DNA of 64,000 bases from Escherichia coli (lineage in GTDB: Bacteria; Pseudomonadota; Gammaproteobacteria; Enterobacterales; Enterobacteriaceae): NCBI RefSeq assembly GCF_044324785.1, contig NZ_CP172127.1; one strand, 5' to 3'. Every line of letters begins with the position of its first letter. Position 1 is the stretch's first letter. The position numbers were made by a program, and so were the translations under genes. Shown here piece after piece: positions 19,922 through 20,007 of this stretch. The notes beneath the pieces are model-generated. The model was not told the DNA's origin. It saw nothing but the letters and a program-made list of their open reading frames with translations, and did no database searches.

Positions 19922-19944
19922 ACGCCCACAGAATGTGTAGGCGT
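19922..19944 (-). terminator. hairpin between gltF and yhcA, possible attenuator
   Basis: cgcccaca-gaa-tgtaggcg stem-loop (one G-U) followed on the transcribed strand by a U-rich tract. Confidence 0.4.
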
Positions 19945-20007
19945 TGTTTTATTAAATTATTCATGTATGTTATTTTTCAGTTAAAACTAAAAAATAACAG
20001 CAATAAA

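Follow-up and report, generated by a model that had tools for sequence, protein, structure and literature searches.

A fimbrial gene cluster between gltD and nanQ

The window (the whole stretch of DNA analysed here, 64,000 nucleotides in length) is a segment of an Escherichia-type chromosome with a GC content of approximately 51%. Compared with 5,416 E. coli genomes, its gltB and gltD genes show 95 to 99% identity, the best match being 97.7%. Between gltD and nanQ, with which the nan operon ends, lies a cluster of five genes encoded on the minus strand, with a GC content of 42.6% (Table 1). The order and position of these genes are those of gltF-yhcADEF in E. coli K-12, but the cluster itself is different. 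Megablast and blastn searches with the cluster and with the gap that follows its first gene returned zero matches in 5,426 complete E. coli genomes; E. coli strains were therefore unusable for an assessment of conservation, and the cluster is not an allele of the K-12 genes. Pairwise blastn placed the borders of the replaced segment at 14654 and 21195, with flanks 96 to 97% identical to K-12 and to IAI39. IAI39 lacks any such cluster at the gltF-yhcADEF site.

Table 1 Features of the locus. Positions are those of the window; the strand is that on which the feature is encoded or read.
Feature	Coordinates	Strand	Remarks
nan operon	ends with nanQ, 14188-14652	+	
Second DUF1120 subunit, YhcF-like, 221 aa	15488..16153	-	PF06551, 25.8 bits
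YhcE-like protein, 190 aa	16150..16722	-	NCBIfam PRK15301, E 3e-12
Outer-membrane usher	16735..19176	-	PF00577, E 6e-83; positional counterpart of yhcD
PapD-like periplasmic fimbrial chaperone	19188..19889	-	PF00345, E 3e-17; positional counterpart of yhcA
U-rich tail	19905..19921	-	AUCGUUCUUUUUAUAUU; U5 run at 19914..19910
Stem-loop 2, terminator-like hairpin	19922..19944	-	ACGCCUACA-CAUUC-UGUGGGCGU
A-rich 5' flank	19945..19960	-	AUAAUUUAAUAAAACA; T-rich on the plus strand only
Stem-loop 1, 14-bp AU-rich hairpin	19968..19999	-	shortly past the stop codon; without U-tract
First gene, DUF1120 pilin-like subunit, 248 aa	20008..20754	-	ATG at 20754; reading frame extends to TTG at 20790
gltD	21201-22619	-	
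gltB	22632-27254	-	

Family searches assigned the second and third genes to fimbrial assembly. The chaperone scored 212 bits against NCBIfam PRK09918 (cutoff 183) and is 39% identical to YhcA, and the usher, 35% identical to YhcD, scored 710.6 bits against its best family, PRK15304, just below the cutoff of 723. Twelve nucleotides past the usher gene starts the YhcE-like gene, which is overlapped by 4 nt by the last gene of the cluster, whose product shows 27% identity to YhcF (E 2e-21). Both predicted subunits lie above the DUF1120 cutoff of 21 bits, at 21.2 for the first gene and 25.8 for the YhcF-like gene. The cluster thus has the components of a Yhc-type beta-class system, namely an usher, a chaperone and DUF1120 subunits, in the order subunit, chaperone, usher, YhcE-like, YhcF-like.

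In the preliminary description, the genes on either side of the gap had been called gltF and yhcA. These names can be kept in a positional sense only, the first gene being the positional counterpart of gltF with 26% identity to K-12 GltF (E 7e-4). Close orthology to K-12 gltF and yhcA was considered and rejected: the proteins are 26 to 39% identical, and chromosomal position is all that the genes have in common. Judged by its sequence, the cluster is a rare, divergent beta-class chaperone-usher cluster that has replaced gltF-yhcADEF at the same site.

Two observations concern the surroundings of the cluster. The gltF-yhcADEF site appears to be a hotspot for the exchange or loss of beta-class fimbrial clusters. 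At the border of the replaced segment, yhcG, a DUF1016/PDDEXK nuclease gene (14728-15378, minus strand), is present as fragments only and appears to be a pseudogene; the fragment at 15121-15378 matches DUF1016_N, and approximately 15124-15460 is 83 to 85% identical to the gene of K-12 and IAI39. Since the fimbrial cluster is AT-rich (42.6% against approximately 51% GC) and the adjacent yhcG is fragmented, the cluster may be silent.

A predicted pilin-like product of the first gene

The first-gene product matches Pfam DUF1120 at 21.2 bits (cutoff 21), and sequence searches returned weak matches to FimF and FimG. Alignment of 23 first-gene and YhcF-like proteins revealed a signal peptide, an invariant pair of cysteines (C39 and C78) and the C-terminal motif G-x5-L-x-Y-[KLY]. 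When the AlphaFold2 model of the product (pLDDT 81.8, pTM 0.76) was submitted to Foldseek, the best matches among solved structures were the pilins FimG, CS20, CfaB, PapE and FimA, with chains of FimF ranking lower. Match probabilities reached 1.00 and target-normalised TM-scores were 0.55 to 0.60, with modest E-values (7e-4 and weaker); the product is approximately 90 residues longer than the pilins matched. Modelling thus predicts a pilin-like secreted protein that is not a close member of any solved family.

The proposal in the preliminary description that the upstream gene encodes a structural subunit is supported by the signal peptide, the cysteine pair, the motif and the fold matches. 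It is not a new proposal, because in the standard annotation of the beta-class yhc locus K-12 gltF already figures as a putative structural subunit (PMC5216030; PMC8174762). That the protein would be the 'major' subunit is suggested by two features of the locus, the gene order and the hairpin described below.

Two hairpins in the gap between subunit and chaperone genes

As previously described, the gap between the upstream reading frame and the chaperone gene is 118 bp long, from the stop codon at 20008 to the ATG at 19889. The other junctions of the operon measure 11, 12 and -4 nt, leaving this gap as its only sizeable intercistronic space. Read on the transcribed strand, the gap RNA runs ...AAUAAAACA-ACGCCUACA-CAUUC-UGUGGGCGU-AUCGUUCUUUUUAUAUUAUGCGUUUAUAAUUU-AUG. 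The gap as a whole folds with a z-score of -5.5 and contains two hairpins, which we term stem-loop 1 and stem-loop 2 in the order of transcription.

Stem-loop 2 lies on the strand of the pilin-like gene, starts 63 nt past that gene's TAA and comprises 9 bp (5 G-C, 3 A-U and 1 G.U) closed by a 5-nt loop. Its predicted stability is -13.7 kcal/mol (z = -3.7), a value equalled by 0 of 200 dinucleotide shuffles. It therefore has what was sought in a terminator as regards stem, loop and placement: a G-C-containing stem of approximately 5 to 14 bp with a short loop, in the sense-strand RNA and downstream of a stop codon. On the plus strand a C.A mismatch takes the place of the G.U pair, and the hairpin folds less stably. 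Within the window, this strand-specific G.U pair is the sole indication that it is the coding-strand RNA that matters.

An imperfect GC hairpin followed by a U-rich run had been placed at 19922-19960 in the preliminary description. The stem-loop is indeed present, at 19922-19944, but it is imperfect on the plus strand only. On the transcribed strand the U-rich run is found at 19921..19905, outside that interval, whereas 19945-19960, which had been taken for the run, is the A-rich 5' flank of the hairpin. In the full-length RNA, the A-rich flank can pair with the U-rich tail, and the helix of the minimum free energy structure is extended by A:U pairs.

In efficient intrinsic terminators the U-tract stands immediately at the stem, and the criterion applied here was a U-tract of approximately 7 to 9 nt starting 0 to 2 nt from it. 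Such a tract is found cleanly in the relatives L004, L005 and L006 (described below). In the window the U5 run begins 7 nt beyond the stem, so the site is not a textbook terminator; the terminator scan accepts the tail only as 5 T within 8 bases. Were the helix extended by three pairs (AAC with GUU), U5 would lie 1 nt from it. An alternative hairpin abutting the U-run (19927..19915, 5 pairs) was judged too weak; read by eye, two of its pairs are G.U and it competes with the main stem.

Sites with the generic terminator pattern are no more frequent in the region than expected (15 found, 15.9 expected). The pattern alone consequently proves little, and the weight of the argument comes from the comparison with relatives. 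Among the sites in the region that show the pattern, stem-loop 2 ranks top. Its sequence occurs once in the window, on which ground a dispersed repeat such as REP was rejected, and an Rfam scan of 19000-21400 gave no match at an E-value of 1 or below.

Stem-loop 1 went unnoticed in the preliminary description. It has a predicted stability of -13.1 kcal/mol (z -4.9) and forms the core of an AT-rich inverted repeat (19953-20014) that has 30-nt arms of 80% complementarity and overlaps the stop codon of the pilin-like gene. L004, the closest diverged relative, keeps the hairpin through changes on both arms. The inverted repeat may serve in processing, in stabilisation or as a DNA operator.

Only 32 nt separate stem-loop 2 from the chaperone ATG, a distance probably too short for the chaperone gene to have a promoter of its own past the hairpin. 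Upstream of the hairpin, a promoter-like match at 19984..19956 was set aside as evidence, as it agrees in 9 of 12 positions only and such matches number 10 against 17.8 in shuffled sequences. No terminator-like structure was found after the last gene of the cluster (15370-15492, minus strand; z -0.9), so that the hairpin after the first gene is the only strong one of the operon.

A stem-loop follows the first subunit gene throughout the beta-class relatives compared

Homologues of the first gene are rare: five clusters were found among 5.8 billion proteins, and the contigs gave four loci. One of these, L003, is the same as the window (99.985% over 6,765 bp). L004, the closest diverged relative (88% protein identity), keeps the stem of stem-loop 2 with a single alteration, the outer A-U pair having become G.U, while two of the five loop bases are changed and the tail is more U-rich (AUUUUUCAUUUUU), with a U run 1 nt past the stem. 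The other two loci carry textbook terminators of unrelated sequence. In L005 (50% protein identity), which also lies after gltBD, the hairpin is AUGUGCACGA..UCGUGCACAU, then UUUUAUCAUUU; in L006, from E. ruysiae (48% protein identity), it is AUAUGCAUAC..GUAUGCAUAU, then UUUAUUGUU, and the cluster stands between fadH and ygjK, not beside gltBD.

Scanning one genome per species with an alignment of the chaperone yielded 16 further usable clusters, from Winslowiella, six Pseudomonas species, Silvania, Pseudenterobacter (two), Enterobacter (two), Leclercia (two), Klebsiella oxytoca and Andreprevotia. A subunit-like reading frame of 217 to 251 aa precedes the chaperone gene in all 16 but Andreprevotia. 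Excluded from the comparison were the Andreprevotia locus (L021), which has a different gene order, and L023, a 477-bp fragment.

In all 20 subunit-to-chaperone gaps compared, the best hairpin was at least as stable as 39 of 40 (or 25 of 25) dinucleotide shuffles, with z-scores of -2.0 to -6.5; the window hairpin is among the weakest of the 20. Hairpin sequences are unrelated across approximately 11 lineages, Pseudomonas among them, and the 20 loci are not all independent. Control segments of 120 nt upstream of the subunit genes gave z-scores of +1.3 to -2.9, and 2 of 12 beat all shuffles, one of the two overlapping another subunit gene. Within the six Pseudomonas loci, double-sided compensatory changes occur at two of the 11 stem pairs, and none of the remaining nine is ever broken. 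A heterogeneous alignment of six enterobacterial loci was too divergent for a meaningful consensus structure. Taken together, the comparison argues strongly that a stem-loop after the first DUF1120 gene is a consistent feature of the beta class, from Escherichia to Pseudomonas.

The hairpin is followed in 15 of the 20 gaps by at least 5 U in 8 nt, 0 to 3 nt from the stem; the U-tract hairpin of L022 is a sub-optimal alternative fold, not the best hairpin of that gap. The remaining five, K-12 (L002), L008, L016, L019 and L020, have a stable stem-loop without a U-tract. Over the 20 gaps, the mean number of U after the stem exceeds that of A before it (5.35 vs 3.75; Wilcoxon p = 0.007).

These results bear on whether the hairpin acts as RNA at all. 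It is very improbable, in our estimation, that it is a chance palindrome in an AT-rich spacer or a protein-binding site at the DNA level, with no RNA function. Terminator-like patterns do occur at chance frequency in the region, and the flanks of the stem are symmetric, with A before and U after it (7 A in the 10 nt before the stem and 6 U in the 10 nt after it in the window). Against this, none of the 200 shuffles folds as well, the G.U pair is strand-specific, the stem is conserved in L004 where loop and tail have changed, and a stem-loop stands at the same position in 20 of 20 relatives, compared with weak signals in the controls.

The genomic contexts of the relatives bear on a different reading, namely that the hairpin ends a gltB-gltD-'gltF' unit and insulates the assembly genes from the Lrp-driven transcription of glutamate synthase, with no role in stoichiometry. 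For K-12, gltBDF is treated as one operon by references cited in PMC2374795; the minus strand from gltB to 19944 holds no stronger terminator-like site, and read-through into the pilin gene is conceivable past the hairpin after gltD, which has no U-tract. What weakens this reading is that the feature moves with the fimbrial cluster into other contexts. The same arrangement is found away from gltBD, for example in L006, where the pilin gene follows a divergently oriented fadH, and in loci of Pseudomonas, Enterobacter, Leclercia and Klebsiella that do not stand beside gltBD. The 410-nt AT-rich spacer after gltD, moreover, holds both a hairpin and a C-rich, G-poor candidate Rho site. We regard insulation from gltBD transcription as improbable.

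With regard to the gltD spacer itself, a 12-bp stem-loop follows the gltD stop codon at approximately 21150-21190 on the minus strand; it is followed by the C-rich, G-poor sequence AUCCUCACCUCAUCUAUCUUCAUCUUCC, has no U-tract and may be a Rho-dependent end of gltBD.

Two of the relatives, L013 (2306-3849; Pseudenterobacter) and L014 (2311-3847; Enterobacter hormaechei), have two tandem DUF1120 genes before the chaperone gene, and a strong terminator-like hairpin follows the second of the pair.

Comparison with fimbrial operons and other systems

The placement of the hairpin, which the preliminary description had presented as typical of chaperone-usher operons, extends beyond the 20 beta-class gaps, in all of which it is significant: a comparable stem-loop is also found behind the first pilin gene in four of five further chaperone-usher operons of K-12 that were tested. 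As in the window, the stem-loop lies between the first pilin gene and the chaperone gene in elfA-elfD (z -4.2), yraH-yraI (z -5.1), yadN-yadV (z -3.3) and, more weakly, sfmA-sfmC (z -1.9), and in elfA-elfD 9 nt separate the U-run from the stem, a displacement similar to that in the window. Unlike the window, these clusters are of the gamma class and unrelated in sequence, and their hairpins are G+C-richer and stronger, the stem of yraH-yraI measuring 14 bp against 9 bp in the window.

The K-12 gltF-yhcA gap has the same chromosomal site and gene order as the gap of the window and, like it, contains two hairpins: in K-12 the first is AU-rich and lies at the stop codon, and the second, further along, has a 12-bp stem. 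The two gaps have no detectable DNA similarity. The best K-12 hairpin there has a z-score of -3.4 (0 of 40 shuffles) and no U-tract; it is the weak AU-rich hairpin that UUUUUAC follows. A literature search for a terminator between gltF and yhcA found no description of one, and a search for explicit statements on terminators after major-subunit genes found nothing usable.

In the pap operon, the gene for the major pilin is separated from the assembly genes by a stem-loop, as the pilin-like gene is in the window, and in pap the pilin mRNA exceeds the distal RNA. A terminator after papA was reportedly found by Baga et al. (1985, 1988). The two systems differ in that pap has a regulator gene, papB, before the pilin gene, papH after it and an RNase E cut upstream of papA, whereas in the window the pilin gene comes first, the chaperone gene follows directly and the subunits are of the beta-class DUF1120 type, not of the pi class. 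For pap and CFA/I, differential expression is attributed to mRNA processing and differential stability (PMC4546395; PMC4423207). A like logic, with a stem-loop placed behind the gene for the product required in excess, is set out for ABC importers and for the cellulosome of Clostridia (PMC9045158; PMC4423207); those cases concern unrelated organisms and families and have mapped transcripts, whereas the window is known from sequence alone.

The best-studied chaperone-usher operon is fim. Its fimA-fimI gap has no significant hairpin (z 0.03). That gap separates the gene for the major pilin, fimA, from the one after it, a position comparable to that of the gap in the window, and is the source of FimR2 (L024 1675-1709, K-12 fimA-fimI gap), which is made by RNase E and binds CsrA (PMC9723502). 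The comparison raises the possibility that the gap of the window encodes a FimR2-like sRNA, made from the pilin 3' UTR and acting in trans, for which the hairpin would serve as stabilising or terminator stem. FimR2, an sRNA of 35 nt that RNase E releases from the fimA 3' UTR, is annotated in K-12, and two conserved hairpins in a 118-nt gap exceed the needs of a terminator. The gap nevertheless lacks any GGA (CsrA-binding) motif over its 118 nt and any Rfam match, so it does not resemble FimR2 in these respects, and the unrelated hairpin sequences of the relatives argue against a conserved seed for pairing or protein binding. We consider such an sRNA highly improbable. Scarcely more probable is that the two hairpins define a stable pilin 3' UTR RNA of approximately 50 to 110 nt, freed by termination and cleavage and acting in trans like FimR2. 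If true, structured RNAs after pilin genes would be a general, lineage-specific regulatory output of chaperone-usher operons.

A probable leaky terminator or, less likely, chiefly a stabilising stem-loop

On balance, we favour the interpretation that stem-loop 2 and its U-rich tail form an intrinsic terminator that is weak and leaky and that, in addition, stabilises the pilin mRNA at its 3' end. The order of pilin-like gene, hairpin, chaperone and usher puts the hairpin at the location of an attenuator of the pap or K99 type. Some polymerases would stop at the hairpin, just past the first pilin-like gene, and the resulting short pilin mRNA would end in a hairpin that protects it from 3' exonucleases; the remaining polymerases would read through into the genes for the chaperone, the usher and the two further subunits. 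Pilin would consequently be made in excess of the assembly machinery.

No fibre is made without chaperone and usher. As the hairpin lies 32 nt from the chaperone ATG, chaperone and usher would have to be expressed from RNA that passes it, which fits a partial stop. The modest stem and the displaced U-run likewise fit leakiness and low efficiency. Termination at the hairpin, its partial nature and its setting of stoichiometry are what we infer from this arrangement. What counts against the terminator reading is the displacement of U5, the lack of enrichment of the pattern, the five of 20 relatives without a U-tract, the absence of a significant hairpin from fimA-fimI and the possibility that the cluster is silent.

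The strongest rival, because a quarter of the relatives have no U-tract, is that the stem-loop serves mainly as an element of RNA stability or processing and not as a terminator. On this account the operon yields a single RNA, an endonuclease such as RNase E cuts the AU-rich gap, and the hairpin blocks 3'-to-5' exonucleases, with the result that the pilin segment persists longer than the remainder, a course known as selective RNA processing and stabilisation (SRPS) and seen in pap and CFA/I. The five relatives that keep a strong stem-loop without a U-tract imply that the conserved element may be the stem-loop itself, and the U-run of the window is displaced by 7 nt. The gap is also very AU-rich and has a second conserved hairpin just past the stop codon. 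Precedents exist in the RNase E processing of the fimA-fimI gap (PMC9723502), in RNase E cleavage of papBA (PMC4546395) and SRPS in pap and CFA/I (PMC4423207). What speaks for termination instead is the U-tract in 15 of 20 relatives and the excess of U after the stem over A before it (p = 0.007), neither of which a pure exonuclease block needs; nor can a cleavage site be identified from the sequence. We therefore hold a role chiefly in stability or processing to be unlikely, though it deserves to be taken seriously, and such a role can coexist with the leaky termination that we favour.

Should stem-loop 2 act as a leaky terminator, the first gene would probably encode the high-abundance fibre subunit of this rare and uncharacterised cluster. 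The conserved stem-loop offers a handle for transcript mapping and reporter tests in a fimbrial class that has no characterised member. The regulatory principle is long established for pap and other fimbrial operons and would not surprise a specialist; most likely, the arrangement is an ordinary and well-known one, of which the cluster is a new instance.

A separate observation concerns the start of the chaperone gene. Reading by eye, we found no recognisable Shine-Dalgarno sequence before the ATG (..UAUUAUGCGUUUAUAAUUUAUG; 19890-19900, minus strand). It is equally unrecognisable in L004 and L005, and K-12 yhcA has AGGAG. This may further reduce the output of the chaperone.
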